From: Eledone cirrhosa
Taxonomy: Eukaryota
Direction: 5' to 3'
NCBI GenBank assembly: GCA_964016885.1
Contig: OZ024740.1
Span: 274,598,001-274,662,000 of the forward strand
Length of the DNA: 64,000 nucleotides
The notes below the pieces were generated by a model that did not search any database, was not told the DNA's origin, and worked only from the letters and a program-made list of their open reading frames with translations. This document shows positions 3,301-51,002 of the stretch, piece after piece; position 1 is the first letter of the stretch; every line of letters starts with the position of its first letter. The position numbers and the translations under genes are program-made.

Positions 3301-3451
3301 AAACCACCCACACCCGGATATGTCTCCGCAAACAGTAATTCTCTTCTCGAATGGGCCATGGTGCCCAAATCCTGAATTGAAAGACTTCGCCAGGTGGTGC
3401 TATTAAGTTAGACATGGCCTGGGCCAATACTGGCCAAAACATTTCAAAGTT
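336..3451 (+). mobile_element. Non-LTR retrotransposon (CR1/L2-group LINE), APE endonuclease + RT, inserted in (TA)n
   Basis: APE motifs LNAQG, LTETH, GGTAIYV, GLYRPP, LDLIFSN, SDH; RT motifs [40 protein letters not shown]. Short 3' UTR; TA arrays on both sides; no ORF1 visible. Confidence 0.93.
354..3375 (+). pseudogene. LINE ORF2 (EN-RT, ~1000 aa) split by one frameshift in a G6 run at ~854-859
   Basis: Removing one G from ATGGGGGGACTTCAAC gives MGDFNLPGVDW, the canonical APE GDFN motif, and joins ORF 354..881 to ORF 940..3375. Confidence 0.88.
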
Positions 3452-3505
3452 ATATATACAGACATATGTATACATATATATATATATACATACATATATA
3501 TATAT

Positions 3506-3554
<49 letters not shown>

Positions 3555-3589
3555 CATATACATATATACATATATATACATACATATAA

Positions 3590-3620
<31 letters not shown>

Positions 3621-3631
3621 CATATATATAC

Positions 3632-3664
<33 letters not shown>

Positions 3665-3819
3665 CATACATATATATATATATACATATATATACATACA
3701 TATATATACATGTATATATATGTACATATATATGTAAGTATGTTTTGATATATATATTTACATACCTACATATATATATACATACATATATACATATATA
3801 TACATACATACATATATAC

Positions 3820-3911
<92 letters not shown>

Positions 3912-3978
3912 GTATATATATATACATATGTATCATTAAAAAAAAAGTATATATACATACATATATATATATACTTAC

Positions 3979-4025
<47 letters not shown>

Positions 4026-4029
4026 CTTA

Positions 4030-7000: not shown

Positions 7001-7229
7001 CGTCACAATGTTGTCCAACGTGACCATTTAGGTCGCCTGCAATAATTATATAGTCACTGTCGGTTATTTGGGAGGTAGTGAGCATCAGTGTCTCATAGAA
7101 TCTGTCTTTTATAGTGCCGGGCAGTCCGGATTGGAGTGCGTACGCAGATATTACTGTCACCGTAGTTCTATTGAGGACAAGTTGTATTTTAATTATTCTG
7201 TCGTTCACTCTATTTACGTCTATTATCTT
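4030..7229 (-). mobile_element. RTE-clade LINE, 5'-truncated and frameshifted, with PHD-like Zn finger and (ATG)n tail
   Basis: EN motifs [27 protein letters not shown]; RT motifs NYRGIKL, QFGF, FVDLEKAFD, GINQGSVL, YADD; C4HC3 motif; RRLRWYGH and GRPRKTW. Spread over ORFs 6501-7415, 6298-6567, 5353-6288 and 4425-5348; (CAT)n at 4030-4051. Confidence 0.93.
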
Positions 7230-7477
7230 ATCTGCCCACTTTTCTGCTACCATGATTCCTACTCCACCCAGCCCATCGTCTTTTCCCACATATATATATA
7301 TATACATACATACATATATATACATACATATACATACATACATATACATACATACATATATATATATACATATACATACATACATATATATATATACATA
7401 CATATATATATACATACATATATATATACATACATATATATATATACATACATATATATATACACATACATATATAT

Positions 7478-7796
7478 ATTGTTATACTTTGGGAGAGTCA
7501 TGTTGCCAATAAGAAACACACGCACCAGTTGCTTTCACTTCAATTTATTATAATAAATTTATAAATTTAGGAGTTTATAAATTTCTGGTTGGTTGGTTGG
7601 TTCCACAACCAGATAGTTGTTTATATATAAACAACTATCTGGTTGTGTAACCAACCAATTTATTATAATAAATTGAAGTGAAAGCAACTGGTGCGTGTGT
7701 TTCTTATTGGCAACATGACCCTCCCAAAGTATAACAATATCGGTTTCAACACACGTTTTCAGATAAAGAATCTTGCTAAACAAATACATATATATA
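7478..7796. mobile_element. Palindromic mini-element made of two opposed 3' ends of the PLE at 21782-26374
   Basis: Both arms match 26216-26372; centre TTATATATAA at ~7625; the right arm carries a ~55-nt tail also present at 21790-21840. Confidence 0.9.
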
Positions 7797-8054
7797 TATA
7801 CATATATATATATACAAACATATATATATATATACATATATATATACTTATATATATATATTTTTAATATATATATATACATATATATATATATACATAC
7901 ATACGTGTTAATAAATTCCTTTTAACTGAAATGTATCCATTTAAATACTTCTATATATATATATATATATACATATATATACATATATATACATACATAT
8001 ATATACATACTTATATATATACATACATATATATATATATATATACATATATAT

Positions 8055-8099
<45 letters not shown>

Positions 8100-8188
8100 T
8101 ATATACATACATATATATATATATACATATATATATACATATATATATACATACATACATATATATATATACATACATATATATATAT

Positions 8189-8219
<31 letters not shown>

Positions 8220-8237
8220 CATACATATATATACATA

Positions 8238-8453
8238 TTATCCTTCTATGTTGTTTACTTGTCTCACTCGCTTTACGCGACTCACTTGTCCCAATAGCTT
8301 TTTTTGTTATTGCTCGCACCAACCTGAGGTATATGATTTTTAATGCGATGAAATACGAATGATGGTTAGAAAATCACTGATGAGGGACTAATTTTATAAT
8401 ATGTAACCCATATGCAACCACGCTGTATTCCTCTTTCTTCTCATGTTTTTTTA
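8238..8453 (+). repeat. Diverged fragment of the non-coding repeat at 59158-60334
   Basis: Aligns by eye to 60130-60334 (gtcccaata...ttattgctcgcaccaacc...atcactgatga...atgtaaccca). Confidence 0.8.
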
Positions 8454-8484
8454 TACATATATATATATATATATATATACATAC

Positions 8485-8515
<31 letters not shown>

Positions 8516-8615
8516 CATATATATACATACATATATATATATATACATACATATATATATATATATATATACATACATATATATATATATATATACATAC
8601 ATATATATATATATG

Positions 8616-8660
<45 letters not shown>

Positions 8661-8834
8661 AGATCAAAAGATGGTTAAAGGAGTTCAATATATTTTATTA
8701 TGCGCATTTCAAAAACAAACATCATCAAACAATAATATTTGTGTTTTCATCAGATAAAACAGGAGAACAAACTGTAGAGTGCTTCTTATCCGATATCTGC
8801 ATTGCTTTATTGTACTACAATAAAACTCACCTCC

Positions 8835-15311: not shown

Positions 15312-15500
15312 CATATATATATACATATATATACATATATATATACATATATATATATACATATATATGTAAAGTTATATTTAAAATTGTTGGGTTACAA
15401 CTAGTAAATATTTATAACTGATATAAAAGCACTCGACAAATATTTGGAGTATATTTACAATATTAAATAAATGGAAAACTATATTTATAAAACCATATTT

Positions 15501-15564
15501 ATTTCATTATATATATTTCGGGGATATCATATTAACAATATGCTATGCCTTCATCAGACAAAAT
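15501..15564 (-). ncRNA. HHR (mirror of 21419-21482)
   Basis: Reverse complement within the inverted arm. Confidence 0.68.
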
Positions 15565-15925
15565 ACAATATAAACAGTTTTATAGATAAATATATTCGAC
15601 ATACCGTAATAAACATCAACTTCATTTGAAGAGGTTTACGCTAGCAGTGAAAATACAGAGAGAAAGAAAGAGAGAAAGAAAAGAGGGAAAAACGAAAGAA
15701 AGAAAGACAAAACGAAGAAAAGGAAGAAAAAGAAGAAAAAGAAAAAGAAGAAATGCTTGGAACAAAATAGAGAGATGGAAAAATAGATAAAGCGAAGAGC
15801 TTCATGTAAAGAGACAGAAAGATATATATATATATAGAGAGAGAGGAAATAGAGATAGATACATATATATATATAGAAAATTAGGTAGTGGGAGGTCATT
15901 TTGAGTAAGTGTATCAATGATACAT

Positions 15926-15960
<35 letters not shown>

Positions 15961-17017
15961 GCTCAAGTATTAATGTAAGGGAGATATATAGAGAGATATA
16001 GAGAGATATAGAGAGAGAAAAAAATGTAAAAATAGCCAGACATATTCGAGGCGTAGAAAACCCTATGTTTTAATGTATTAGTATTTATAAAACTTACACT
16101 ATATTGTAAATATCAGTATTCCTGAATGAAACAAGTATTCACAATGTGTGAAAATTCATTATCTTATGTTTAGTTTAAAAAAATTCATATGTCTATGTGA
16201 CAGCTACAAATCTCAATGTGAATCCAACTGATTCACTCCGCAAACTCTAAGTTATCGGAAAACATTCTCAATGTGGTATAAAAATTTGAGCGTATTATTA
16301 TTCTTGCGATTACTCTACAAGATTATCTATCAAGCAGAAATAGAGAGCAGATTTCAATATACTAATCGAAAATATATATTATATTATAAACAAAGATAAC
16401 AATAATAATAATAATAAGTAAAAATATATAAAAATATAGAATAGAAAACTAAAAAAATATTACGAAAGAATATTACATAATAAAAATATTGCATATTAAA
16501 AATACTACGTATTAAAAAATATTACGTATTAAAAATTTACATATAAAAATATTAAAAATAAAAATAAAAAAATAAAAATATTATAGAATACTACAATACT
16601 AAAAGAATAAAAATAAAAATAAAAATAAAAATAAAAATGAAAATAAAAATAAACCACAAAGAACAACCCTACAAAGTTAATTGACAATATATTGCCAAGT
16701 TCATTACAAGACAAAGCCAAAAATTATCTATCAAATCACATCTAGCAAAGAATATCGTAAAAAAGATTATGATGTCCAATAATGTCTACATATGTTCCTA
16801 TGTTTAATATAGAAGTTTATCTAGTGTAAGGTTAATTCAAAAAATTTGGAGCATCGGCTTTTAGGGTAGCTTAATTTTTCATGAGGAATGTTTAGATAAA
16901 ATAAAAATAAATAAAATAAAATAAACAATAAAAAGAGTAAAACGAGGGAATCAAAGATTTAGGAATCAAAAGATTTATCGGCTAGTTCTCATATAAACAT
17001 AAATCAAACTAAATATA

Positions 17018-17963
17018 CTACATTTTAAATTTAAATTTATATTTAAACGTTGAGTTTAATCTATGTTTGCAACAACTGAATAAATTTGTCCGTAGGTTAA
17101 GGGAATTTTTAGATTTTAGTATAAAGAATATCTCCTCTGCGCAGAGGTCACATGTCTCAGAGGATGAATTAAAAGGAATCCCTCTTGAGACTATATTCCA
17201 AGCCGTCGAATATCTAATGTTATCTAGCTTAAGTTGCCAGAGTACCCCTGATAGTGCCGTTGAAGATTTTTTATTTGGATCTGTGAAAGAATTCTTGTGG
17301 TTATTATAGCGAAGTTTAAATTCCGTCGATGTGGAACCGAAGTAGTTAAAAGAATTAGAGTCAGTATTAACATTACAATTGTATACTATATTTTTAACTA
17401 AGCAGTTGTTATTTAACGGACATTTAGATCTATCTCTACAGTTACATTTGTTAACTTGTATATTATTTATGCTATTATCAGTAGGTTTTAAGTTCCTATT
17501 ATTTATTCTATTAATATTTTGTGCTAAATTTTTGGTGGATGAGTAGGTTAATTTAATTGTATGCCTATTGAAGATTGAGTGATACCTATGTGTTCTAGGG
17601 AAGCGATTATCAAGAGCTTTGAAAAATAATTTAGCGATGTGGGTTTTAATGTTTAGTGAGAAAGGGGGGGCAAACCAAATTATGTTCCTAGTTCTATTTA
17701 TTTTTTGTCCTTTGGAATTATTGTAATGCTTTCTATTATAGTTGTTAATGTTGTTGCCGTAATTAAAAAAGTTGTTACTTTGTTTAGTTTGTCTATCATT
17801 ATCTATGTATACAATCTTATCAGCATACCCTGCCCTAGCTAGTGCATCATTATAGTATTGGGCCTTTTCGTCAAAAATCTTTCTATTCGACGAGATCCTA
17901 GAGATACGTTTTTGGACTGAGTTTACTATAGTGTTTTTGACAGATCTGGGGTGGTTAGAGTTA
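17018..17963 (-). pseudogene. Inverted duplicate of the PLE C-terminal half (late RT/linker + GIY-YIG)
   Basis: Protein identical to the + copy from NSNHPRS onward except ARAG vs ARVG. Confidence 0.92.
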
Positions 17964-19964
17964 TCTGACTTTGAAAACGATATAATTTCTATCATACAAG
18001 GGGTCAAATTCAAGAGAAATTTTAAAGGCCAGGAATATCTGAAAGGCATTAAGGATAACATTGAGAGCTTAGAGAAAACTGAGAAGATCTTGGTGAAATC
18101 TGACAAGACCAACAACCTCTATGGAGTGCGGAAAGACATGTATAATGGCCTCATACTGAAAGAGCTGAGGAAAAAATACAAGGTAGCAGATAAGGCCGAA
18201 CTTGAGAAAATGAATGTTGAAGCATCTTGTATAATGCATGAGTTGGAAATTGAGAACAGAACACAACCTTTCGTGCCCAGGAAACCGAAGATCAATATGA
18301 AGGACCACAAGAGCAATTTTGAAAATGACCTGCCAGTGAGATTGATCGCACCTTCAAAATCGGACCTGGGCAAATTAAGCAAAAACATTCTTGACAGGGT
18401 GATACTGCAAATTAAGAACTTGGATTGTGTATCTAACCTGAGCTTGTGGAAGGGAACTGGAGAGGTTGTTGAGTGGTTTAGGCAAATTAAATATGACAAT
18501 AATAATAGGTTTATTCAACTTGATATAGCTAACTATTATTCTTCTATTACCCCTAGTCTACTAAATAGGGCACTAAATTACGCATTCAAACATACGGACC
18601 TAACTAGCAAAGAAATGCATATTATATTATCGGCTAGGAAAACTTTGATAGAATTTAATGACAAATTATGGACTAGAGCAGATAGAGATAGCAATTTTGA
18701 CATAACTATGGGATCTTCCGACTCAGCTCAGGTAACTGACCTTGTGGGCTTATTTTTAATCAATTCGCTACATAGGAAAATACCTGGTACTACCGGAGGC
18801 TTATATAGGGATGACATGCTTTTACTTATTAATAATAATAACCCTGAACTAAATAGAAAATGTAAACAAATTACAAAATTTTTTAATTACTTTAACCTTA
18901 AAATAGAAATTGAGAACAACCATAGAATAGTCAATTTCCTAGATATAACATTAAATCTCAACACATGTCTCCACTATCCTTTTCACAAGTTGAATGAAAA
19001 CTTAAACTGTGTCAACTTTAACTCTAACCACCCCAGATCTGTCAAAAACACTATAGTAAACTCAGTCCAAAAACGTATCTCTAGGATCTCGTCGAATAGA
19101 AAGATTTTTGACGAAAAGGCCCAATACTATAATGATGCACTAGCTAGGGTAGGGTATGCTGATAAGATTGTATACATAGATAATGATAGACAAACTAAAC
19201 AAAGTAACAACTTTTTTAATTACGGCAACAACATTAACAACTATAATAGAAAGCATTACAATAATTCCAAAGGACAAAAAATAAATAGAACTAGGAACAT
19301 AATTTGGTTTGCCCCCCCTTTCTCACTAAACATTAAAACCCACATCGCTAAATTATTTTTCAAAGCTCTTGATAATCGCTTCCCTAGAACACATAGGTAT
19401 CACTCAATCTTCAATAGGCATACAATTAAATTAACCTACTCATCCACCAAAAATTTAGCACAAAATATTAATAGAATAAATAATAGGAACTTAAAACCTA
19501 CTGATAATAGCATAAATAATATACAAGTTAACAAATGTAACTGTAGAGATAGATCTAAATGTCCGTTAAATAACAACTGCTTAGTTAAAAATATAGTATA
19601 CAATTGTAATGTTAATACTGACTCTAATTCTTTTAACTACTTCGGTTCCACATCGACGGAATTTAAACTTCGCTATAATAACCACAAGAATTCTTTCACA
19701 GATCCAAATAAAAAATCTTCAACGGCACTATCAGGGGTACTCTGGCAACTTAAGCTAGATAACATTAGATATTCGACGGCTTGGAATATAGTCTCAAGAG
19801 GGATTCCTTTTAATTCATCCTCTGAGACATGTGACCTCTGCGCAGAGGAGATATTCTTTATACTAAAATCTAAAAACTCCCTTAACCTACGGACAAATTT
19901 ATTCAGTTGTTGCAAACATAGATTAAACTCAACGTTTAAATATAAATTTAAATTTAAAATGTAG
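17961..19964 (+). CDS. PLE reverse transcriptase + C-terminal GIY-YIG endonuclease (5'-truncated, open frame)
   Basis: VKSDKT, MKDHK, RLIAP, LDIANYYSSI, TMGS, YRDD, FLDI, WFAPPFS, CNCR..CPL...CL, VY..YFGST..FKLRYNNH, CDLC, CKHR. The first 10 aa of the track ORF come from the inverted arm. Clade call is from memory of motifs. Confidence 0.92.
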   Translation, partial: LSDFENDIISIIQGVKFKRNFKGQEYLKGIKDNIESLEKTEKILVKSDKTNNLYGVRKDMYNGLILKELRKKYKVADKAELEKMNVEASCIMHELEIENRTQPFVPRKPKINMKDHKSNFENDLPVRLIAPSKSDLGKLSKNILDRVILQIKNLDCVSNLSLWKGTGEVVEWFRQIKYDNNNRFIQLDIANYYSSITPSLLNRALNYAFKHTDLTSKEMHIILSARKTLIEFNDKLWTRADRDSNFDITMGSSDSAQVTDLVGLFLINSLHRKIPGTTGGLYRDDMLLLINNNNPELNRKCKQITKFFNYFNLKIEIENNHRIVNFLDITLNLNTCLHYPFHKLNENLNCVNFNSNHPRSVKNTIVNSVQKRISRISSNRKIFDEKAQYYNDALARVGYADKIVYIDNDRQTKQSNNFFNYGNNINNYNRKHYNNSKGQKINRTRNIIWFAPPFSLNIKTHIAKLFFKALDNRFPRTHRYHSIFNRHTIKLTYSSTKNLAQNINRINNRNLKPTDNSINNIQVNKCNCRDRSKCPLNNNCLVKNIVYNCNVNTDSNSFNYFGSTSTEFKLRYNNHKNSFTDPNKKSSTALSGVLWQLKLDNIRYSTAWNIVSRGIPFNSSSETCDLCAEEIFFILKSKNSLNLRTNLFSCCKHRLNSTFKYKFKFKM

Positions 19965-21022
19965 TATATTTAGTTTGATTTATGTTTATATGAGAACTAG
20001 CCGATAAATCTTTTGATTCCTAAATCTTTGATTCCCTCGTTTTACTCTTTTTATTGTTTATTTTATTTTATTTATTTTTATTTTTATCTAAACATTCCTC
20101 ATGAAAAATTAAGCTACCCTAAAAGCCGATGCTCCAAATTTTTTGAATTAACCTTACACTAGATAAACTTCTATATTAAACATAGGAACATATGTAGACA
20201 TTATTGGACATCATAATCTTTTTTACGATATTCTTTGCTAGATGTGATTTGATAGATAATTTTTGGCTTTGTCTTGTAATGAACTTGGCAATATATTGTC
20301 AATTAACTTTGTAGGGTTGTTCTTTGTGGTTTATTTTTATTTTCATTTTTATTTTTATTTTTATTTTTATTTTTATTCTTTTAGTATTGTAGTATTCTAT
20401 AATATTTTTATTTTTTTATTTTTATTTTTAATATTTTTATATGTAAATTTTTAATACGTAATATTTTTTAATACGTAGTATTTTTAATATGCAATATTTT
20501 TATTATGTAATATTCTTTCGTAATATTTTTTTAGTTTTCTATTCTATATTTTTATATATTTTTACTTATTATTATTATTATTGTTATCTTTGTTTATAAT
20601 ATAATATATATTTTCGATTAGTATATTGAAATCTGCTCTCTATTTCTGCTTGATAGATAATCTTGTAGAGTAATCGCAAGAATAATAATACGCTCAAATT
20701 TTTATACCACATTGAGAATGTTTTCCGATAACTTAGAGTTTGCGGAGTGAATCAGTTGGATTCACATTGAGATTTGTAGCTGTCACATAGACATATGAAT
20801 TTTTTTAAACTAAACATAAGATAATGAATTTTCACACATTGTGAATACTTGTTTCATTCAGGAATACTGATATTTACAATATAGTGTAAGTTTTATAAAT
20901 ACTAATACATTAAAACATAGGGTTTTCTACGCCTCGAATATGTCTGGCTATTTTTACATTTTTTTCTCTCTCTATATCTCTCTATATCTCTCTATATATC
21001 TCCCTTACATTAATACTTGAGC

Positions 21023-21057
<35 letters not shown>

Positions 21058-21418
21058 ATGTATCATTGATACACTTACTCAAAATGACCTCCCACTACCT
21101 AATTTTCTATATATATATATGTATCTATCTCTATTTCCTCTCTCTCTCTATATATATATATCTTTCTGTCTCTTTACATGAAGCTCTTCGCTTTATCTAT
21201 TTTTCCATCTCTCTATTTTGTTCCATGCATTTCTTCTTTTTCTTTTTCTTCTTTTTCTTCCTTTTCTTCGTTTTGTCTTTCTTTCTTTCGTTTTTCCCTC
21301 TTTTCTTTCTCTCTTTCTTTCTCTCTGTATTTTCACTGCTAGCGTAAACCTCTTCAAATGAAGTTGATGTTTATTACGGTATGTCGAATATATTTATCTA
21401 TAAAACTGTTTATATTGT

Positions 21419-21482
21419 ATTTTGTCTGATGAAGGCATAGCATATTGTTAATATGATATCCCCGAAATATATATAATGAAAT
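21419..21482 (+). ncRNA. Minimal type-I HHR near the PLE 3' end
   Basis: ATTTTGT-CTGATGA-AGG..CATATT gtt AATATG..CCC-GAAA-TATATA-TA-ATGAAAT; A-C mismatch at the base of stem II (A-U in the 34393 copy). Confidence 0.7.
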
Positions 21483-21591
21483 AAATATGGTTTTATAAAT
21501 ATAGTTTTCCATTTATTTAATATTGTATATACATATATATATATATATGCATATCTATATATACATATATATATATATATACATATCTATA

Positions 21592-21782
<191 letters not shown>

Positions 21783-21997
21783 TTCGTTTCTGAATTTGTT
21801 TAGCAAGATTCTTTATCTGAAATCGTGTGTTGAAACCGATATTGTTATACTTTGGGAGGGTCATGTTGCCAATAAGAAACACACGCACCAGTTGCTTTCA
21901 CTTCAATTTAATTTATTATATATTTATAAATTTACAAATTTATAAATTTCTGGTTGGTTGGTTGGTTCCACAACCAGATAGTTGTTTATATATATAT

Positions 21998-22042
21998 AGT
22001 CATAGTTCTTTCGTCACACACTCTGTGACCTCTTCAGTGACT
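21998..22042 (-). ncRNA. HHR (mirror of 26171-26215)
   Basis: Reverse complement within the inverted pLTR. Confidence 0.75.
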
Positions 22043-22317
22043 GGGGATTTCTTTCTTCGTTTCTGTGCCTTTCCTTTCTTCTATCCTACGCCATTTTGTT
22101 TGTGTGTGGGTTGCGTGCTCAGTTTGCGCATGCGCCACATCCGGGTGTCTGTGTGTGTTTGTGTTCATTTTTCTATTTTTCTATTTATATTTTTCTATTT
22201 GTTTGTTTATTTATTTATTTATTGTTGGTTGGTTGTTTGTTCTATGTGTGTGTGTGTTTTCATTTTGTGTGTGTTTTCAATTGTAAGTTGTTTGTTTTAT
22301 GTGTGTGTGTGTTTTCA

Positions 22318-25300
22318 AGAACAGTACATTACAGTACATTACTCAAGAATGTAATAAGCACTTTAACAGAAAATTAAAGTGGCTTAAACAGGCAAAGCTA
22401 AATCGGGATACTATAGATTATACCAATAGATATCCCGACAAAATTGACGGTATCAACATGGCCGACACCTCATTATCTGAAGAGTTCAACAATGAGAATA
22501 CCAACATTTATGGAAACACGGAAATAGATAATAATGAAATGTCTGTGTTACGTCTGCCACCCAAATTTGCGACATTCAAGAAGGTAAATATGATTAGTTG
22601 TCTGTCAGAAATAGAAAAATCATTTACGAAACTACGCTGGAGCATCAAAAACAAAAACAAAAGCAACAATATACGCACACACGTATACAACACACATCCC
22701 AACAACAACAGACACACAGACACAAACAACAATAACAACAACAATAGCAACATACCCAGATACAACAACAACAATAGCAACATACCCAGATACAACAACA
22801 ACAATAGCAACATACCCAGATACAACAACAGACACGCAGACACAAACAACAATAACAACACACACGGAGACAACAATAACAACAACACACACATCAACAA
22901 CAACAACAATAGCAACATACCCAGATACAACAACAGACACGCAGACACAAACAACAATAACAACACACACGGAGACAACAATAACAACAACACACACATC
23001 AACAACAACAACAATAGCAACATACCCAGATACAACAACAGACACGCAAACACAAACAACAATAACAACACACACAACAACGATAACACACACACACACG
23101 GAGACAACAACAACACACATCAACAACAACACACATCAACAACAACACACATCAACAACAACAACACACACGCATTCAATGCCTCTCACCACCACCACAA
23201 TCTTAACAAACACACACACACAGAAAACAAGTAATGACAGTAGCACAGAAATCAGAGAAATAAGAGAAAGTAATAGGATTAAAAGGAAAAGGAGATGGGA
23301 GACTAAGGACAAAGAGAATAACCAAGACGAACACACAGACACACAAAATAGGGTAGATAACAACATTGAGCCAGTGGAAAGAGACAGCAGTAATTATGAG
23401 AGACATAGAAACAACCATGAAGCTGAGGCTGCTGCTGTTGGTGGAAATAGAAACAACACAACTAACAATAACAATAGCACTAGTACACATAAAGCAGCAG
23501 CCTGGAACTCTCCGTTTTATAACCCCTCCGATAAATCATTCGACCTACGACGAGTCCACGCCACGACTTTGCCATTTAACAAACGCACACAGTTACCGTC
23601 GCAGGTCGATGAACAAACAGAAGCACAATTTAGTATAGCTAAATCCGAACTTAGAAATATTATAGAACAGTATAGCAAGAAGCATAATAGAATAGAGGCC
23701 CAGCAACTGGGAGAAGAATCTGCAAATGGCTTGCGTAAGCTCATGCAGCGCTCGCGTAATGGAGAGATAGCATGCTTTCCAACAGACAAGTCTGGCAGAA
23801 TGTCGGTTGACAGCCTGCCAAACTACATCCAGGCAATGCAACCCCACATCACTAACACAAGAGAGGTAACACCACAGGAGCATGAGGATAGAGAAAAAAC
23901 CCTCAATGCCCATATGGTGATGTGGACAAATATAATGCAGCCCAACAAAAGGACTGCCAACAACTTCCAGGCCTGGAACAATGACGTGCCGGCGTTGTAT
24001 GGGCTTCGAAAAGACCATAAAACGGGCTGGGACCCTGTCGCGGGACCACCAACACGGCCAGTCTGTGGGGCTAACATTGCTAGTAACTACAGACTGTCCT
24101 ACTTCCTCTCCCTGATATTACGCCCCATCATTGAGATGTCCCCAGATGTGTGTGACAGCACGGAGGACCTCCTCAGCAGAATCGGCGCGGGTAACCGATC
24201 TGGGGACCTAACAAGCTGCATAATAGGCAGTATGGATGTTGTGTCCCTGTATCCATCTATTGACATGGATTTTGCTGTGGAGAAATGCGTCGAAATGATC
24301 AGCGAGAGCAAGGTTGAGTTCCGTGGGATTGATACCAGTGAGCTGGGACTTCTACTTAAGCTTACCCATAGTAATAGTTACCTAGACACTTATGACCTTA
24401 GCAACCTGTGCCCTACAAGACCAGCAAGAGGCAGACCACCTACCATCACCTCAATGGCCAAGAAAACCCACACAGATAGATGGAACGGGTGGACCAGAGC
24501 CATACGGACACCCGAAAACCACGATGAACTGAAGAAAATGATTGCACATGCAGTAGGGGCCAGCATAAAATTAACCCTTAAGGAACATATGTTCAAATTT
24601 AATGGTAAAACATATGCCCAAGAGGAAGGAGCAGCCATTGGTGTTAGCATTGCAGGCGACATAGCTAACTTATTCATGGTATGGTGGGACAGTAGACTTA
24701 AACAAAAACTTAATGAACAATTAGAAGACAGCTTAACCCTGATAATGTACTCCCGCTACGTAGATGATATAAACATCGTAGTTAAGACACCCCCACTAAA
24801 GAACAGTCAGGAACTAGAGAAAAACACAATGGAAAGCATCCAGCAAATAGCAAACTCCATCCACCAGAGCATTAGAGTTACTATAGACTACCCAAGTAGA
24901 CACCCCAACCATCGATTACCTGTACTAGACACAGAGCTCTGGTTAGATACAATTAACAACCAAAAACAAATCCTCCATTCCCATTATGCCAAACCCAGGA
25001 CTTCCAAACATCTGATCCACCGAAACTCGGCCATTTCGGACCATACCAAAATCAACATACTGATTGCGGATTTGGTACGGGTGATGAGAAATGTGTCCCG
25101 CATGTGCAACCCCGAAGAACTAGAGAGACACATACAACATTTCATCCACCGTATGCAGTTCTCTGGCTACAATCAGAGAGATAGAATCAGAGTGTATAAA
25201 GGAGCCAGAACCAAATGGGAAAAAATGGTAAATAATGACATAAATGGGACCTGCCCCTTGTATAGGAGCAAATTTTGGAATAGAATAGAAAGAACTAAGA

Positions 25301-25887
25301 ACAAGGCCAATAGAATAAACTCATGGTATGATAGCAATAAATACCAGAGCGTAATGTTCATCAATACAACCCCTAGAAGCGAACTAGCCTACAAATTTAG
25401 AAGGGCCCTAAAGAAACATAATCTCAATATTAAGATAGTAGAAAGACCTGGTACCTCCGTAAAAACACTTATTAGCAAGACATACCCGTTCCAAAGACCC
25501 TCATGTATAGATAAGAAATGTATAACCTGTAAAATAAGCCCCCATATTAACTGTAAAACTAGAAATGTAGTATATAGCATAAGATGTACTGAAGGACAAT
25601 GTAGAAACAAAAATATAGTGTACATAGGTGAGACAGCTCGTAGTATAGGGGAACGAATAAATGAACACTGGCGAGACCTCCAAGATAATAAAGAATCATC
25701 TGTGCTCTACCAACATGCTAAGATAGAACACAGAGGTAAGTTAGAGAACATAGAAATAATAATAGAATCCACACGCAAGAAAGACGCAATGTTTAGGCAA
25801 ATTACAGAGGCAGTAAGCATAAAAGAATTAAAACCAAAATTAAATAGAAAATATGAGTGGAACAGCAACATCACAACTTACAATTAA
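22318..25887 (+). CDS. PLE RT + GIY-YIG ORF with Asn-rich repeat insert; one frameshift at ~23100-23230
   Basis: N-terminal EMSVLRLPPKF..EIEKSFTKLRW; PTDKSG, LYGLRKDHK, RPVCG, MDVVSLYPSI, QEEGAAIG, RYVDD, VLD; CxxxxCxxC, NVVYSIRC..YIGETARSIGERINEH, HA..EH, EA..I...KPKLN. Confidence 0.92.
22700..23220 (+). repeat. Coding minisatellite: 30-bp units and 105-bp higher-order units on an (AAC)n backbone
   Basis: NNNNSNIPRY three times; 35-aa unit starting at 22806, 22911 and 23016. Confidence 0.9.
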
Positions 25888-26170
25888 GGACAAAATGAAA
25901 ACACACACACACATAAAACAAACAACTTACAATTGAAAACACACACAAAATGAAAACACACACACACATAGAACAAACAACCAACCAACAATAAATAAAT
26001 AAATAAACAAACAAATAGAAAAATATAAATAGAAAAATAGAAAAATGAACACAAACACACACAGACACCCGGATGTGGCGCATGCGCAAACTGAGCACGC
26101 AACCCACACACAAACAAAATGGCGTAGGATAGAAGAAAGGAAAGGCACAGAAACGAAGAAAGAAATCCCC

Positions 26171-26215
26171 AGTCACTGAAGAGGTCACAGAGTGTGTGAC
26201 GAAAGAACTATGACT
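26171..26215 (+). ncRNA. Minimal type-I HHR in pLTR
   Basis: AGTCA-CTGAAGA-g-GTCAC..GTGAC-GAAA-G aa C-TA-TGACT; perfect stem I. Confidence 0.78.
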
Positions 26216-26401
26216 ATATATATATAAACAACTATCTGGTTGTGGAACCAACCAACCAACCAGAAATTTATAAATTTGTAAATTTATAAATATATAATAA
26301 ATTAAATTGAAGTGAAAGCAACTGGTGCGTGTGTTTCTTATTGGCAACATGACCCTCCCAAAGTATAACAATATATATATATACATATATATATACACAT
26401 A

Positions 26402-26477
<76 letters not shown>

Positions 26478-26493
26478 CATATATATATATATA

Positions 26494-28133
26494 TTGAACT
26501 CCCCACCCTTATTCCTTTCGCCTTCCACCGCCCCCCTCCCTCCACACTTATCCCCCACTAACACCACTAACACACCCCTCCTTTTCACCGCCCACCCCAC
26601 AACTAACAATACTAACACCTCCACTCCACCCCTCATCTGACCACCCTGCCCCAACTAACATACTAACATCCCTTCCCTCCCCCTCTTCCCCCCCCTCCTT
26701 ATCACACACCCACCGGCACATATATACACGCGCTCACACTAAACACACACCCTACTACCACCACTAACCCTCACTCCACACCTCTCACCCCACACCTCCA
26801 TCCCACCACCCCGCAACTAACCTCACTAACACCCCCTAACCCCAAGCACACGAACCACGCACCCACTTACACCACCCACCACACACGCAACTAACATCAC
26901 TAACACCCCCCAACCCCACGCACACGTACCCACACACCATCGTACACCACCAACTCTACACACCCTACCACCACTAACCCCCACTCACACCTGCATTCAA
27001 CCCCTCCCCACCTCCCGTATACTAACACCCACTAACACCTCTTCATCAAACTACACACACACCAGTACACCACACTCCCTCCATAGAACCACACACACCC
27101 TTCTATCCCCGCTCCACCCACACCCTCACTCCACACTCACTCATCCCACTAACACCCCTACTAATACACACAAACACACCCTCCTCACTCCAACTTTCAC
27201 ACCTACCCATCCTCGCCCCTTTACCATTCCACCGACTGCTGCTATGCCCTCTGACCACCTCCCAGCACAAACAGACCACAGCACTCCCACTGCTGACCAT
27301 TTCCTGTTGCGCGCGCACCCCACATCTCTCCTCTTCCGACCTTCGCTTCATGGAATACCCACACGCAGAAATTGACCAACAACCAATCCACTAAACATCT
27401 TCGGAATTTACCAACTTTTCAACCATCCTCTTACGTAATCACCTATATAACTCACCCACACACACACACCCAAAAGAAATTTTTCTCCACACTCCACCTA
27501 CACCCACAACACGCTTAAACCCCACACACACGTGCTTTCCACCACATATTTACACCCTCAGCTCCTGATTCCTCTCCCCCCCACCCCTCTATCCACACAC
27601 GCACAGACACTCCGACCCACAAACCCCCACACACACACATCCTAAACATGCAACCCCGTTCTTCCCCCAACCCTTACTTTCACATACACACACACACACA
27701 CGCACACCTACACACACACACCACCTTCAGCCCTCCCCGCTCGGACACCCCGTCTCCCTCTCCCCACTCCACCCGCCACCACCTCTACACACCCCACACC
27801 CTACCACCACCTGTTTACCCCCCTTTTAATTTCAGTTTATTTTGATCATGCCTTTATTTTTAAATTTATCTCATTCCTTGTATTTTGAACATGCTTTATT
27901 TTTATTTTTATCTTTATTTTTTATTTTTTCATTCGCACCGTTTCCTTTCGCTATATGTCTCTCCACCACTCCCCTACACACCCTTTGAACTCTGTTCCCA
28001 CACACTTCTCACCTGAGGAAGGGCTTATGCCCGAAACGTCGTCCCCCACCAACACCCCACTCTCCAGAGCGTGAAATTAATAAATATTCGTTGTACTGCC
28101 TCTCTGTTTTGTCCCTGTTCAAATTTTTCCATT
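26494..28133 (+). mobile_element. Degenerate C/A-rich 3' portion of another probable PLE
   Basis: HHR-like CTGAGGA-a-GGGC ttat GCCC-GAAA-CGTCGTC at 28013-28043; faint GIY-YIG C-terminal remnant (TPTADHF..H..LHG) near 27280-27420; last ~60 nt recur at 37090-37151. Confidence 0.5.
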
Positions 28134-28941: not shown

Positions 28942-28942
<1 letters not shown>

Positions 28943-29406
28943 TGTTGTCCCAGTTTTCAAAAAGGGAAACAAATCCCTTGCCGTGAATTACCGTCCAATC
29001 TCACTCACCTCTCATATCATTAAGGTATTTGAGAGAGGGGTGAGATCGCGAATGACCCTCTTCCTTGCTGAACTCCAACCAGCATGGATTCCGTAATGGA
29101 AGGGATTGCCTGACGCAGCTACTGCATCAATTTGATGACATTTTGAGAGCCTTGGGAGAGGGTTCCAACACTGATGTTATCTACCTTGATTTCAGCAAGG
29201 ACTTTGACAGGGTTGATCATAACATTCTACTGAGAAAGCTGTCCAATATTGGTGTCACTGGAAAGCTGCTGCAGTGGATCAAGAGCTTCCTGTCAAACAG
29301 AACCCAACATGTTGTAGTTGAGGGAGTCAAATCCAGCCCAGCCAAAGTCAGTAGTGGGGTCCCACAAGGCACTGTGTTGGGCCCACTTCTCTTCATCATC
29401 TATATT
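28942..29406 (+). pseudogene. Internal RT fragment of the same LINE family as 336-3451, ending at the assembly gap
   Basis: Matches ~1967-2446 with a few substitutions and a 14-bp deletion. Confidence 0.93.
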
Positions 29407-29606
29407 NNNNNNNNNNNNNNNNNNNNNNNNNNNNNNNNNNNNNNNNNNNNNNNNNNNNNNNNNNNNNNNNNNNNNNNNNNNNNNNNNNNNNNNNNNNNNN
29501 NNNNNNNNNNNNNNNNNNNNNNNNNNNNNNNNNNNNNNNNNNNNNNNNNNNNNNNNNNNNNNNNNNNNNNNNNNNNNNNNNNNNNNNNNNNNNNNNNNNN
29601 NNNNNN
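29407..29606. other. Assembly gap (200 N)
   Basis: Run of N. Confidence 1.
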
Positions 29607-30133
29607 TATATATAATTAATACAATAACAGAGATAGTTTAAAGCTAAACTCTGACTGGTAACCATCTCACTCAACAAACATTAGGTTATATTAAAATATA
29701 AACCCAATTTAAGTGTTTGGGGTGCTAACAATATGTATAATGTGGAAAAACCAGTTGTATTATTTTATGAGATATAATTAAAGTTAAAGTATATCTCTCT
29801 TTCCAAACAATTGTTTCATTATAAGTTTTCTACAAGTTTGGGAGAAAGTTTCCAGTTTATGTAGAAGCCTAATATATATTCATGTAAGAATATATTTAGG
29901 TGGGCACTTATAAATCATCAGTGGAAGCCCATTAAACATTGATATAAGAAAACAATTTCTTACCGCTGTCAAAAATCATGTCCGTAAAGTTGGTCTCTCT
30001 CACTTCGAATGACCGTTATATATGTATATATATTTAATATAGAAAAGCTTCAATATTAAACATTTATACTCTGCTATGTATTGAGTACCTTACTTACTTA
30101 CTGTGGTTACCCCCGATTGAACCCGGAGTAAGG

Positions 30134-30218
30134 GGTCTGACGAGCCGTGGATTACAGACTCGGAATAGATCGATGCAGATCGAACCTTGAGCGGATCAGT
30201 GGCGAAACACGCGTCACC
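30134..30218 (+). ncRNA. Type-I HHR with extended stem II (mirror 35238-35322, -)
   Basis: GGT-CTGACGA-GCC...GGC-GAAA-C acgc G-TC-ACC; GUC triplet. Confidence 0.78.
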
Positions 30219-30557
30219 AACAAATAAACGTAATGAAGGAGTAACCGCTTGTCTTTGCTTTATTTTACTATAATACACTCTGTCTAGCTCTACACCTCGA
30301 CACAGAAGTGAACCTAAACATCAAGTGCTCACCCGGCTGAACCTACAGTAACTCCAAGTTACACTCCCTGGATATATATCATCATCATCACCGTTTTACG
30401 CCCGTTCTTCCACGCTAGCATGGGTTAGACGGGTTGTCCTGTTGTGGGCAGTAGCCGGTCGGCTGACCATACCTTGCTCATATGGGAATATATATATATA
30501 TATATATAGGGAAACACAAAGCAGGCATTGTTTAGAAATGTCTAGCGAGTTTGAAAA

Positions 30558-30921
30558 TTAGGTAGTAACGTATGCTTACGCCGTATTTGACTAAATAGAA
30601 TTAGTCTGTTAATTGGGATATTTTTTTAAGAACCCTCTGAATGGAAAAAAGGATGAGTATTGATAAAGCTTGATTTGTCTCTCTATTCATATACATATAT
30701 ATACCTGTTATGGTTATATAGCTTCTAATTGAATGGAATGAAGCATGGGTGACATGTTGATGTAATGGTAATGCATTGATCCGGCAATCCAAAGATGTGC
30801 ATTCGTGTCCCATGTACATGAATACTCATCCTTTTTTCCATTCAGAGGCTTTTTAAAAAATCCCAACTAACAGACTTATTCTATTTAATCAAATACAGCA
30901 TAAGCACTTGTTACTACCTAA
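30558..30921. repeat. Older small fold-back with ~100-bp diverged arms (mirror 34529-34892)
   Basis: ttaggtagtaac...ggatgagtatt versus aatactcatcc...gttactacctaa, with multiple mismatches. Confidence 0.85.
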
Positions 30922-31640
30922 CGTATATATATATATATATATATATATATACGATATTAAATAAATGGAAACTATATTTATAAAACCATATTTATTTCAT
31001 TATATATATTTCAGGGATATCATATTAACAATATGCTATGCCTTCCTCAGACAAAATACAATATAAACAGTTTTATAGATAAATAGATTTGACATACCGT
31101 ACAACATCGACTTGTATTTGAAAAGTTGAATTGGCAGTGAAAAAATTGTACACAGAGAGAAAGAAAGAGAGAAAAAGGAAAGAAAGACAGAAAACGAAGA
31201 AAAAGAAGAAAAAGAAGAAAAAGAAGAAATGCATGGAACAAAATAGAGAGATGGAAAGATAGATAAAGAGAAGAACTTCATGTAAAGAAACAGAGAGAGA
31301 TATATATATAGAGAGAGAGGAAATAGAGATAGATATATATATATAGAAAACTAGGTAGTGGGAACATCCGTTGAGTAAACGTATCAATGATACATTTATT
31401 TATTTATTTATTTATTTAGCTCTAGTATTAATGTAAGGGAGATATATGTGGTTAGGAGAGAAACCAGCTGTTATATAGAGAGAAAAATTAAAAATAACCA
31501 GACATAGGCGAGGCATAAAAACCCTATGTTTTAATGTAGAGGTATTAGTATGTATAAAAACCAGCCACTATATTGTAAATATCAGTATTCCTGAATGAGA
31601 CATGTATCCATAATGTGTGAAAAGTAATGATCTTATGTTT

Positions 31641-31672
<32 letters not shown>

Positions 31673-32423
31673 TTCATATGTTTATGTGATAACTACAAAC
31701 ATCTATGTGAATTTACATGATCAACTCTGCAAACCCTAGGTTCACGGAAAACATTCTCATTGTGCTATAAACATTTAAGTATACATATATGTGTATATAT
31801 ATACACACATATATATATAGAGTCTATATTACTACTATTGTCTTTACTCTACAAGATTATCTATCAAGCAGAAATAGAGAGCAGATTTCAATATATTAAT
31901 AAAAAAAATATATATCAGAAACAAAACCAAAAAATAACAATAATAATAATAATAATAAATAATAATAAAATAGAAAACTAAAAAATATTACGAAAGAATA
32001 TTACATATTAAAAATATTACATATTAAAAATAAAAATATTAGAAAATACTACAATAATAAAAAAATAAACCACAAAGATCAACCCTTCAAAATTAATTGA
32101 CAATATATTGCCAAGTTCATTATAAGCATCAGAGTCGAAAAACAGATAAAGCTAAAAAATTATTTATCAAATCGCATCTAGCAAAAATCATTTCAAAAAG
32201 TTTAGGATGCCCATTTGGTCTACATGTGTTCGTATATTTAATATAGAAGTTTATCTAGTGTAACGTTTATTCGAAATATTTGGAGCATCAACTTTTAGGG
32301 TAGCTTAATTTTTCATGAAGAATGTTTAAATAAAAATAAAAATAAAAATAAAAAGAATAAAAAGAAGAAATCGAAAGATTTATCGGCTAGTTTCCCATAT
32401 AATTATAAATCAAACTAAATATA

Positions 32424-33802
32424 CTACATTTTAAATTTAAATTTATATTTAAAAGTTGAGTTTAATCTATGTTTGCAGCAACTGAATAAATTTTCCGTAG
32501 ATTAAGGGAATTTTTAGATTTTAGTATAAAGAATATCTCCTCTGCGCAGAGGTCACATGTCTCAGAGGATGAATTAAAAGGAATCCCTCTTGAGACTATA
32601 TTCCAAGCCGTCGAATATCTAACGTTATCTAGCTTAAGTTGCCAGAGTACGCCTGATAGTGCCGTTGAAGATTTTTTGCTTGGATCTGTGAAAGAATTCT
32701 TGTGGTTATTATAGCGAAGTTTAAATTCCGTCGATGTGGAACCGACGTAGTTAAAAGAATTAGAGTCAGTTTTAACATTACAATTGTATACTTTATTTTT
32801 AACTAGGCAGTTGTTATTTAACGGACATTTAGATCTATCTCTACAGTTACATTTGTTAACTTGTATATTATTTATGCTATTATCACTAGGTTTTAAGTTC
32901 CTATTATTTATTCTATTAATATTTTGTGCTAAATTTTTGGTGGATGAGTAGGTTAATTTTATAGTATGTCTATTGAAAATTGAGTGATACCTATGTGTTC
33001 TAGGGAAGCGATTATCAAGAGCTTTAAAAAATAGTTTAGCGATGTGGGTTTTAATGTTTAGTGAGAAAGGGGGGGGGGGGGCAAACCAAATTATGTTCCT
33101 AGTTCTATTTCTTTTTTGGCCTTTGGAATTATTGTAATGCTTTCTATTATAGTTGTTAAGGTTGTTGCCGTAATTAAAATAGTTGTTATTTTGTTTAGTT
33201 TGTCTATCATTATCTATGTACATAATCTTATCAGTATATCCTGCTCTAGCTAATGCTTCATTGTAGTATTGGGCTTTTTCGTCGAAAATCATTCTATTCG
33301 ACGAGATCCTAGAGATACGTTTTTGAACAGAGTTTACTATAGTGTTTTTGACAGATCTGGGGTGGTTAGAGTTAAAGTTGACATAGTTTAAGTTTTCATT
33401 CAACTTGTGAAAAGGATAGTGAAAACATGTGTTGAGATTTAATGTTATATCTAGGAAATTGATTATTCTATGGTTGTTCTCAATTTCTATTTTAAGATTA
33501 AAGTAATTAAAAAATTGTGTAATTTGTTTACATTTTCTATTTAGTTCAGAGTTATTATTATCAATAAGTAAAAGCATGTCATCTCTATATAAACCTCCGG
33601 TAGTACCAGGTATTTTCCTATGTAGCGAATTGATTAAAAATAAGCCCACAAGGTCAGTTACCTGAGCTGAGTCGGATGATCCCATAGTAATGTCAAAATT
33701 GCTATCTCTATCTGCTCTGGTCCATAGTTGGTCATTAAATTCTATCAAAGTTTTCCTAGCCGATAATATAATATGCATTTCATTGCTAGTTAGGTCAGTA
33801 TG
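32424..33802 (-). pseudogene. PLE RT (YRDD) + GIY-YIG fragment, close relative of 17961-19964
   Basis: Nearly the same protein from HTDLTS onward; G-run expansion (PPPP); 1-nt frameshift near the C-terminus. Confidence 0.93.
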
Positions 33803-34392
33803 AAAAACTAAACATAAGATCATTACTTTTCACACATTATGGATACATGTCTCATTCAGGAATACTGATATTTACAATATAGTGGCTGGTTTTTATACAT
33901 ACTAATACCTCTACATTAAAACATAGGGTTTTTATGCCTCGCCTATGTCTGGTTATTTTTAATTTTTCTCTCTATATAACAGCTGGTTTCTCTCCTAACC
34001 ACATATATCTCCCTTACATTAATACTAGAGCTAAATAAATAAATAAATAAATAAATGTATCATTGATACGTTTACTCAACGGATGTTCCCACTACCTAGT
34101 TTTCTATATATATATATCTATCTCTATTTCCTCTCTCTCTATATATATATCTCTCTCTGTTTCTTTACATGAAGTTCTTCTCTTTATCTATCTTTCCATC
34201 TCTCTATTTTGTTCCATGCATTTCTTCTTTTTCTTCTTTTTCTTCTTTTTCTTCGTTTTCTGTCTTTCTTTCCTTTTTCTCTCTTTCTTTCTCTCTGTGT
34301 ACAATTTTTTCACTGCCAATTCAACTTTTCAAATACAAGTCGATGTTGTACGGTATGTCAAATCTATTTATCTATAAAACTGTTTATATTGT

Positions 34393-34456
34393 ATTTTGTC
34401 TGAGGAAGGCATAGCATATTGTTAATATGATATCCCTGAAATATATATAATGAAAT
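34393..34456 (+). ncRNA. Minimal type-I HHR (mirror 30994-31057, -)
   Basis: ATTTTGT-CTGAGGA-AGG...CCT-GAAA-TATATA-TA-ATGAAAT. Confidence 0.76.
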
Positions 34457-35529
34457 AAATATGGTTTTATAAATATAGTTTCCATTTATTTAATATCGTA
34501 TATATATATATATATATATATATATACGTTAGGTAGTAACAAGTGCTTATGCTGTATTTGATTAAATAGAATAAGTCTGTTAGTTGGGATTTTTTAAAAA
34601 GCCTCTGAATGGAAAAAAGGATGAGTATTCATGTACATGGGACACGAATGCACATCTTTGGATTGCCGGATCAATGCATTACCATTACATCAACATGTCA
34701 CCCATGCTTCATTCCATTCAATTAGAAGCTATATAACCATAACAGGTATATATATGTATATGAATAGAGAGACAAATCAAGCTTTATCAATACTCATCCT
34801 TTTTTCCATTCAGAGGGTTCTTAAAAAAATATCCCAATTAACAGACTAATTCTATTTAGTCAAATACGGCGTAAGCATACGTTACTACCTAATTTTCAAA
34901 CTCGCTAGACATTTCTAAACAATGCCTGCTTTGTGTTTCCCTATATATATATATATATATATATATATTCCCATATGAGCAAGGTATGGTCAGCCGACCG
35001 GCTACTGCCCACAACAGGACAACCCGTCTAACCCATGCTAGCGTGGAAGAACGGGCGTAAAACGGTGATGATGATGATATATATCCAGGGAGTGTAACTT
35101 GGAGTTACTGTAGGTTCAGCCGGGTGAGCACTTGATGTTTAGGTTCACTTCTGTGTCGAGGTGTAGAGCTAGACAGAGTGTATTATAGTAAAATAAAGCA
35201 AAGACAAGCGGTTACTCCTTCATTACGTTTATTTGTTGGTGACGCGTGTTTCGCCACTGATCCGCTCAAGGTTCGATCTGCATCGATCTATTCCGAGTCT
35301 GTAATCCACGGCTCGTCAGACCCCTTACTCCGGGTTCAATCGGGGGTAACCACAGTAAGTAAGTAAGGTACTCAATACATAGCAGAGTATAAATGTTTAA
35401 TATTGAAGCTTTTCTATATTAAATATATATACATATATAACGGTCATTCGAGGTGAGAGAGACCAACTTTACGGACATGATTTTTGACAGCGGTAAGAAA
35501 TTGTTTTCTTATATCAATGTTTAATGGGC

Positions 35530-35655
35530 TTCCACTGATGATTTATAAGTGCCCACCTAAATATATTCTTACATGAATATATATTAGGCTTCTACATAAA
35601 CTGGAAACTTTCTCCCAAACTTGTAGAAAACTTATAATGAAACAATTGTTTGGAA
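35530..35655 (+). ncRNA. Type-I HHR with ~80-nt loop-2 insertion (mirror 29801-29926, -)
   Basis: TTCCA-CTGATGA-tTTATAAGT...ACTTATAAt-GAAA-CAATTG-TT-TGGAA. Confidence 0.7.
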
Positions 35656-35836
35656 AGAGAGATATACTTTAACTTTAATTATATCTCATAAAATAATACA
35701 ACTGGTTTTTCCACATTATACATATTGTTAGCACCCCAAACACTTAAATTGGGTTTATATTTTAATATAACCTAATGTTTGTTGAGTGAGATGGTTACCA
35801 GTCAGAGTTTAGCTTTAAACTATCTCTGTTATTGTA

Positions 35837-35892
<56 letters not shown>

Positions 35893-35973
35893 TATCATCA
35901 TCATCATCACTGTTTAACATCCATTCTTTCACCCAAGCATGGGAATAACGTATATATATATATATATATATAA

Positions 35974-36165
35974 TATAGAAATGGCTTCTACAGGACTAGA
36001 ACTGTTTCATTCAGAGGAAATCATTATCATCAGAGCGTTCCTGATGGTTTCCTTATAATGAAACATTTATAGTCCTGTAGAAGCCATTTCTATATTAAAT
36101 GTTTATACTCTGCTATGTATTGAGTACCTTACTTACTGTGGTTACCCCAGATTGAACCCAGGATA
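35974..36165. repeat. ~120-bp hairpin followed by a copy of the sequence at ~30050-30125
   Basis: atagaaatggcttctacaggacta ... tagtcctgtagaagccatttctat; then tttatactctgctatgtattgagtaccttac. Confidence 0.8.
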
Positions 36166-37059
36166 AACATATATACACATATATATATATATATATATAT
36201 AAATACATATATTTTTTCATGTATATATATGTTCAAGAAATTATCGTATAGTTAAAGGGTTTGCTTTACCAATACTTGGTTTTGCATTCAGTCCAACTGT
36301 ATGGTAAATAACTTCTATAATCATCTTGGGTTGATCAATGCCTTGTAAGTGAAATTAGATGATAGGTGATCATGGTCACTGTGCAGAAGCCTATAATGTG
36401 TCAGTCCTATTGTATCCATGTGACTACTTTAGTATGGTCATGTGATGCCTTTGGATGATGATCCTTCAATGAAGAAATGCTACATTTCCAAGTGGAAGGA
36501 AGCTGATGTAGAAGAAGGAAATTCTGTACAAAAGGGATGAAGTTGGATCTCAAAACAATGAACCTCACAGAAGAGATGACGAAGAAATGCAATGAGTGGG
36601 GGACGTTGTGCTGTTAAATATTCACACAACCCATGCAAGCATGGAACACTGAATTTATAAGAATGATAATCACAATAGACCATGCAGCCATCCCTTTTTA
36701 AAGAATATATGACTGCAATTTCCAGCAAGTCAAACCACTACGTGGATGTCTCCTTGAACATATGTTCTGTTAATGTGATCAATGGTAGAGAGAATACTTG
36801 TGCTGATTTGAACATAAGATTGCTAAAGCATCCAAATATAGTCAACAATAAATTCAATTTGGACACCAAGTTATATATTGATACTGCAAACTGTATGAAT
36901 TTCATGGTAATGTGATAATAAACAGAGAACATGAAGATAATACAGAATCTACAAAATGTAACCCCAACCAGAAACAAAAAAATAAAAACAAAAATATAAA
37001 CCAATATATATATATATATATACATATATATACACATATATATATATATTTATAAATAC

Positions 37060-50645: not shown

Positions 50646-51002
50646 AATATTAAAATATAAGTATTAATAAAATAGATGTTCTTTTGATCAATTACATTTT
50701 ATTATACATATTTTGGATGTACAACCTTGATTACATCTTAACCATTTAACATCTCAGGGTATGTCATGTATCATTATATTTTGTCTGATTTTGTTCAAAT
50801 CCCGTCGAGGTTAACTTTCATCCTTACGGGGTCGATAAAATAAAGTACCAGTAATGTACTGGGTAATTGCTGGCCTTGTGCCTAAAGTAGAAACAATTAT
50901 ATTTTGTCTGATGAGGACGTACTGTTGTACATCTGAAATATGTATAATAAAATGTAATTGATCAAAAGAACATCTATTTTATTAATACTTATATTTTAAT
51001 AT

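Follow-up and report, generated by a model that had tools for sequence, protein, structure and literature searches.

A composite head-to-head Penelope-like element with duplicated flanking repeats in the genome assembly of Eledone cirrhosa

How can a retroelement come to lie at the center of an inverted repeat whose arms hold not only its own 3' end but also a train of other repeats? This question is raised by a locus at positions 29607 to 35849 of a 64,000-nucleotide (nt) stretch of Eledone cirrhosa DNA, here called the window (GenBank assembly GCA_964016885.1, contig OZ024740.1, positions 274,598,001 to 274,662,000, forward strand). At its core is a Penelope-like element (PLE), designated P; neither end of P bears a tail, and the two arms share 1317 nt of flank, reaching ~1.35 kb beyond P. 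An earlier reading made from the sequence alone had proposed PLE-mediated transduction of the whole train from a donor. We find that the locus is an oddity truly present in the assembly, built of known parts, and a variant of the head-to-head structure of PLEs. The best reading of its origin, to which by our own judgment we give a probability of about 0.6, is local snap-back DNA copying of resident flank, either in the germ line or as a data artefact.

Results

An inverted repeat that runs past a Penelope-like element

The two arms, at 29607-31645 and 33805-35849, are separated by a 2159-nt spacer and align over 2045 columns with a single substitution (30004/35452) and a 6-nt difference in TA length. 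The spacer (31646-33804, minus strand) is the unique part of a 5'-truncated P, with an open frame of 455 amino acids (aa) from stop to stop at 32462-33829. The 3' end of P forms the inner part of the right arm (33805-34498, plus strand), carries a hammerhead motif at 34400-34449 and, compared over 694 nt, matches the left arm with 0 differences. The left arm, on the minus strand, mirrors the right one, and its first base directly adjoins a 200-N assembly gap (29407-29606), with only a few bases of TA at the contig end beside the gap. Across the gap, outside the arms, lies a reverse transcriptase (RT) fragment of a long interspersed nuclear element (LINE) (28942-29406, plus strand; Pfam RVT_1), which is cut by the gap and is 95% identical to 1967-2445.

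Judged by comparison with published motif descriptions, P is a 5'-truncated Hydra-type PLE. Its relatives at loci L108 and L119 have frames of 747-750 aa from stop to stop with motifs, read by eye, of an RT (YRDD) and of a GIY-YIG-type nuclease at the C terminus (IVY..YVG); a Pfam search of the PLE frames returned no match. The P-family frames also carry RWR, DKT, CNCRDRSKC (a CxCX5C linker), CDLC (CxxC) and CKH (CxH). These match the Hydra clade, for which RWK-like and DKT motifs, a CxCX5C linker, and CxxC and CxH around E and N are described, with CCHH absent (PMC8557442; this and the other published sources are cited from excerpts). The hammerhead motif in the terminal repeat and the insertion into (TA)n are likewise Hydra-clade features. 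The P unit measures ~3.85 kb from terminus to terminus in L108 and has a long 3' region, against "generally" <3 kb for the clade (PMC8557442). The nearest P copies are 99% identical, with normal ends and without the passenger.

Beyond P, the train runs outward as (TA)14 (34499-34526), A, a LINE or short interspersed nuclear element (SINE) tail, B, S and C. A (34529-34941) is an old small fold-back repeat with a one-sided extension, from a dispersed family whose best other copy is 82% identical; the arms of its inner palindrome (34529-34632 and 34786-34892) are 87% identical. Next comes the 3' tail of a common LINE/SINE (34969-35076, plus strand), putatively RTE, the label given to it in the earlier reading; it has several copies in the window, one of them beside an RT frame at 4425-5417. 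B (35077-35327, antisense) is a short hammerhead-bearing repeat with a best other copy of 93%, and B-family copies terminate at 35077 or 35184. S (35328-35415), a piece missing from the earlier inventory of the passenger, is likely a tiny fold-back of a further family and is 89% identical to 36088-36159. The outermost piece, C (35430-35845, plus strand), is the terminus, truncated on its 5' side, of a young non-coding tandem unit of 999 nt, and a (TA)25 run (35842-35891) lies at the end of the right arm. Most of the train's TA runs are bordered by a repeat terminus on the inner side.

By these comparisons, A, B and C are dispersed TA-targeting repeats that were stacked before the duplication. 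The sequence-only reading had described a composite fold-back with near-identical arms and a diverged palindrome inside them, and had concluded that the passengers were assembled first; the single substitution over 2045 columns against 87% in the palindrome, and the dispersal of the three families, bear this out. Two similar or related arrangements were seen elsewhere. At L110 (7356-7902), a tail-less P end is followed by a TA run and a truncated sense C, a stacking like that in the window, with the arms not extended. Four B-family small fold-backs (L055, L056, L059 and L064) have one long and one short end, with a 107-nt difference.

Each arm contains three predicted hammerhead motifs

A type I hammerhead descriptor found three motifs per arm, in P (34400-34449, plus strand), B (35319-35241, minus strand) and C (35535-35650, plus strand), and none of 300 dinucleotide shuffles of the arm yielded any hammerhead motif. 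The earlier claim that the arms hold ribozymes of two families besides P thus stands by descriptor, while Rfam at its gathering threshold detected no ribozyme. All three motifs have a short self-complementary loop III, an architecture shared with the dimer-type ribozymes of PLEs (PMC4209133). In the P motif (z 0.41) and the B motif (z 0.45), the fold of lowest energy is not the hammerhead; the C motif alone folds better than its shuffles (z -4.8). The hammerhead core was absent from the four A-family copies examined and from the last 620 nt of a second PLE family, X. Two more hammerhead motifs in the window, at 8753-8699 and 50908-50946, have a long stem I and belong to other repeat families.

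Ordinary P insertions pair a tailed with a tail-less end

As a control set we took 75 P loci of at most 10 kb together with a sister copy in the window, which gave 58 outward-facing end pairs. We removed six whose arms were short or unmatched, as well as the study locus itself, leaving 51 controls. One ~90-nt-tailed and one tail-less end were found in 50 of the 51 control fold-backs, the remaining one being tail-less at both ends; a further pair at L107 brings the tailed and tail-less combination to 51/52. Two tailed ends were never seen in P head-to-head copies, and either arm can bear the tail (L106-L144, L209-L244 and window 15370-21527). In family X, 16/16 pairs were tailed and tail-less, among 24 loci chosen for having one tailed end. 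Given two tail-less P ends and 1317 nt of shared flank, the study locus is not an ordinary P insertion.

The sister fold-back (15370-21527, plus strand) has a tailed left arm and a tail-less right arm, with 4 differences over 2507 nt. Its arms had been described as stopping just past the hammerhead; this is right in that no flank is copied there, and misses the asymmetry produced by the extra ~90-nt tail of the left arm. At 60444-62732 the window holds another inverted repeat of ~710 nt (93% identity) with one arm extended before a TA run, likely a tailed/tail-less insertion.

A tail at one end of PLE head-to-head copies has been described before (PMC8557442; PMC3846280), and in vitro a PLE protein extended both strands from two internal start sites without needing hammerhead cleavage (PMC11167929). 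From the tail pairing and these two start sites, we infer that each arm is normally a separate complementary DNA (cDNA). Our literature search returned no count of tail pairing and no cross-family composites of this kind, a search that did not cover supplements and is not proof of absence.

The duplication is likely younger than the insertions it contains

P has 6 private substitutions relative to 18 relatives over 2825 columns, all of them in the spacer, and C has 1 over 413 columns (35609), common to both arms. Arms as old as P should differ at ~8.7 sites, and 1 difference is observed (Poisson 0.002). The control arms pooled 325 differences over 51106 nt, and those of at least 600 nt differed by 0.10-1.95% (28 pairs), so that the study arms are more alike than any control. 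From these counts, the duplication or its last homogenization is likely younger than the insertions of both P and C, unless an unsampled source supplied the private changes. The sole arm substitution places a non-family allele in the left, gap-side arm.

C is the terminus of a retrozyme-type unit

The earlier reading expected that the outermost piece could be assigned to an autonomous PLE. Instead, the C unit is 999 nt long with a longest open frame of 59 aa and occurs as direct partial tandems; as the terminus of a non-coding tandem unit, C would be of the retrozyme type. Other copies are 98-100% identical. No autonomous partner bearing C's terminus was present among the loci examined. Copies share a single 3' end in 28/30 loci, and an inverted copy occurs at only 1/58 C loci (a few of which overlap), its end being the ribozyme site and not the terminus. 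At L156 (1383-2503), both outer ends of a C-family copy lie at unit position 803, the predicted ribozyme cleavage site, followed by identical non-TA sequence on each side. At the study locus both arms stop exactly at the family 3' end of C, in sense orientation. Since C has a single 3' end, symmetric arm ends are no argument against a C-driven event; a stop at a terminus is also expected in any case, given that most TA runs have a repeat terminus on their inner side.

The passenger has a single source in the assembly

If the train had been transduced from elsewhere, a donor with the same order in single orientation should exist. When the 3-Gb assembly was searched with the whole passenger, the two arms were the only places that matched it (40 candidates scored, 52 matches). 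The 30-nt B/S junction, with at most 2 mismatches, occurs at 2 sites in 3.0 Gb, both of them the arms; assembly gaps and the second haplotype lie outside this search. Given the age of A, B and S, one would expect to see a donor even if its allele lacked the young P and C. These searches (passenger, A, B and B/S junction) thus recovered no such locus: the duplicated passenger is local and single-source within the assembly, and transduction from a donor is not supported at the study locus.

Contigs and reduced-representation reads from public runs spanned neither the gap nor any TA run, and the 14 public runs listed included no RNA. Exact A pieces had depths of 9.6 (run X1) and 13.9 (run X2), where the unique right flank had 7.6-8.0 and 3.9-4.0, and the private allele of C was present only in run X3 (5.8 against 3.7-3.8), contig depth not being copy number in either case. 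Runs X1-X3 may be the assembly's own sample, and the depth figures support no inference. A reading of the private alleles as absent from run X1 was dropped, since contigs lose rare variants.

A second composite is a candidate capture by another PLE family

The locus L117 (G000:C3:140038429-140048428) contains a composite at 2058-8700 (G000:C3:140040486-140047128) in which both arms hold Hydra-type P sequence and the terminus of X. The arms are 2.4 kb long and consist of P sequence cut before its ribozyme, joined to the X terminus. The 40-nt tail of X is on one arm and its tail-less end on the other; between the arms, 2 sites differ in the P part and 0 in the X part. No assembly gap lies closer than 8 kb. 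We consider it highly probable that L117 records the capture of 3.4 kb of Hydra-type sequence by X. Its structure fits capture of a read-through RNA, which makes the mechanism put forward in the earlier reading credible in this genome, with a signature that the study locus is unable to display. Since the cargo at L117 consists of young P sequence alone, a donor that is polymorphic would go unseen.

Origin of the duplicated flank

Under local snap-back copying, P would first have inserted, in keeping with the pattern of its family, as an ordinary head-to-head copy into a TA array where C and the older repeats were already resident. In the gap-side arm, a free DNA end then likely paired with P's own inverted arm and was likely extended through the stacked repeats up to the next long TA run, where copying would have stopped and rejoined at TA. 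The tailed end of P would have disappeared, its place taken by a copy of the flank of the other arm; either arm may be the original. Local copying is the simplest account of the lost tail, the lack of a donor, the very young arms and the end at a TA run, and self-annealed ends are reported to prime local inverted duplications beside L1 insertions (10.1101/2024.12.14.628481). Owing to the left arm's contact with the gap, an identical product could also have formed as a library or assembly artefact. We regard a germ-line event as possible, and hold an artefact, in a library molecule or at the contig tip beside the gap, to be just as tentative; the start of the left arm at the gap and its non-family allele favor the latter.

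A number of observations weigh against local copying. The central junction (33804/33805) has a 2-nt filler and no microhomology, and a survey of junctions (61 rows, some duplicated; 28 overlap, 4 blunt and 29 filler) does not discriminate between the readings. Collinear flank was copied in 0/51 control P fold-backs, so a second example is missing. A check of 20 contig starts, 2 contig ends and one further gap gave 0 flank-copying tips, a sample too small to rule out an artefact that is rare; 3 of these 20 starts began in plain TA runs, and the only near-perfect terminal repeat, at L274, lies inside a PLE array. Fold-back reads make up ~0.6% of nanopore genomic reads and are nearly absent from HiFi (PMC12870357), which would tell against an artefact on the latter platform. 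The P parts of the arms are identical (0/694), which fits a fresh copy of whole arms better than extension from an older arm (chance ~0.05). The outermost C is young, seemingly active, and in sense orientation, as transduction predicts, and a close C copy was found in only 1/99 10-kb control loci. Finally, L117 bears the marks of capture, yet none of its 40 best matches is a donor.

The last of these points touch on a competing explanation, which we judge doubtful but serious: a read-through RNA containing P, the passengers and C was reverse-transcribed from the C terminus by a PLE enzyme that primed on both target strands, giving two fresh arms. Its source could lie inside the gap, on the other haplotype or at the study locus itself. 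It would explain why both arms end at the single 3' end of C, why C is young (98-100%) and why the whole arms are near-identical; the internal starts on both strands in vitro (PMC11167929), the movement of cargo in trans by PLE repeats (PMC3846280) and L117, which shows such a product in the same genome, are all in line with it. Against these stand the failure to find a donor or an empty donor allele, the rarity of inverted C copies (1/58 loci), the lack of an autonomous partner with C's terminus in the examined loci, and the contact with the gap, which would be left as a coincidence. All other explanations together receive a small share of our judgment. The flank might have been copied during the insertion of P itself, by a new cDNA end that folded back and ran on into target DNA; this would account for the missing donor, the identical arms and the P-type central junction, but the 6 substitutions private to P, set against 1 difference between the arms, and the 0/51 control insertions with such copying make it improbable. 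Little can be said either for arms that are the center of a much longer inverted duplication running through the gap: the left arm is cut by the gap and its true end is unseen, but left of the gap lies the LINE fragment and not a mirror of 35892 onward, and a search with 35880-36600 gave one full copy in the assembly.

Other features of the window

Next to the sister copy, at 21687-26494, lies a further PLE; it has inverted terminal arms, and its frame of 1090 aa from stop to stop (22615-25887) looks intact. Related to it is a tandem-inverted PLE array at a contig start (L274:1-10000, G000:C45), whose arms are 99.9% identical. At 853-3375, a LINE frame of 840 aa has endonuclease and RT domains; the fragment left of the gap is 95% identical to it.

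Discussion

Local snap-back copying, our preferred reading, has different consequences in its two forms. If the locus is real DNA, inverted arms of PLE insertions can later copy their neighbors, which would give TA-rich genomes a way of forming local inverted duplications; if it is an artefact, PLE arms next to gaps can mimic transduction. In either case, the tail-pairing count and L117 are leads of more weight than the study locus. The pairing (51/52 in P and 16/16 in X) fits a dimer that primes on both target strands from two different RNA start sites, a link to the pair of start sites observed in vitro; for capture across families, L117 offers a clean candidate.

A bolder model would join these leads. 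In PLE-crowded TA arrays, a terminus nested downstream may let its own enzyme start internally on read-through RNA and take along neighbors of other clades; at its boldest, the model would make the study locus such an event primed at the end of a retrozyme, by which five stacked pieces with three ribozymes were moved, a proposal that we consider speculative. In this model, the pair of tailed and tail-less ends would record which enzyme did the capture.

Comparison with known systems

The closest known structures are the head-to-head insertions of Hydra-clade PLEs, which share 5' truncation with an adjacent inverted copy, a hammerhead in the terminal repeat, (TA)n and an optional tail at one end; their tails measure 30-40 nt against ~90 nt in the P family, whereas the study locus is tail-less at both ends and its arms run 1.35 kb past the element (PMC8557442; PMC3846280). 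With Pen3a and the captured nonribosomal peptide synthetase (NRPS) gene of Adineta vaga, terminal repeats likewise enclose foreign DNA, and both direct and inverted repeats occur. In that case the repeats around the cargo belong to one family, a target duplication is present and the cargo has relatives elsewhere; at the study locus the termini come from different families, and no source copy was found (PMC3846280; PMC6431247). Non-LTR (long terminal repeat) retrozymes resemble C as non-coding tandem units with one type I hammerhead motif per unit, but C is represented in the window only by a truncated terminus, and its unit is ~1 kb with a long stem II (10.64898/2026.07.22.740005).

Three further systems bear on local copying. 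Hairpin-forming AT satellites cause real loss of coverage, usually well inside the block, whereas the study contig ends a few bases into TA (10.64898/2026.07.13.738322). Fold-back read artefacts also yield inverted copies that are near-perfect, their segments sometimes lying ~2 kb apart, but the center of the study locus is a biological-looking PLE junction (PMC12870357). The inverted duplications adjacent to L1 also set inverted genomic flank beside a retroelement and need no donor; they form from 2-bp hairpins at insertion, whereas at the study locus an arm of ~700 bp would prime copying after insertion (10.1101/2024.12.14.628481).

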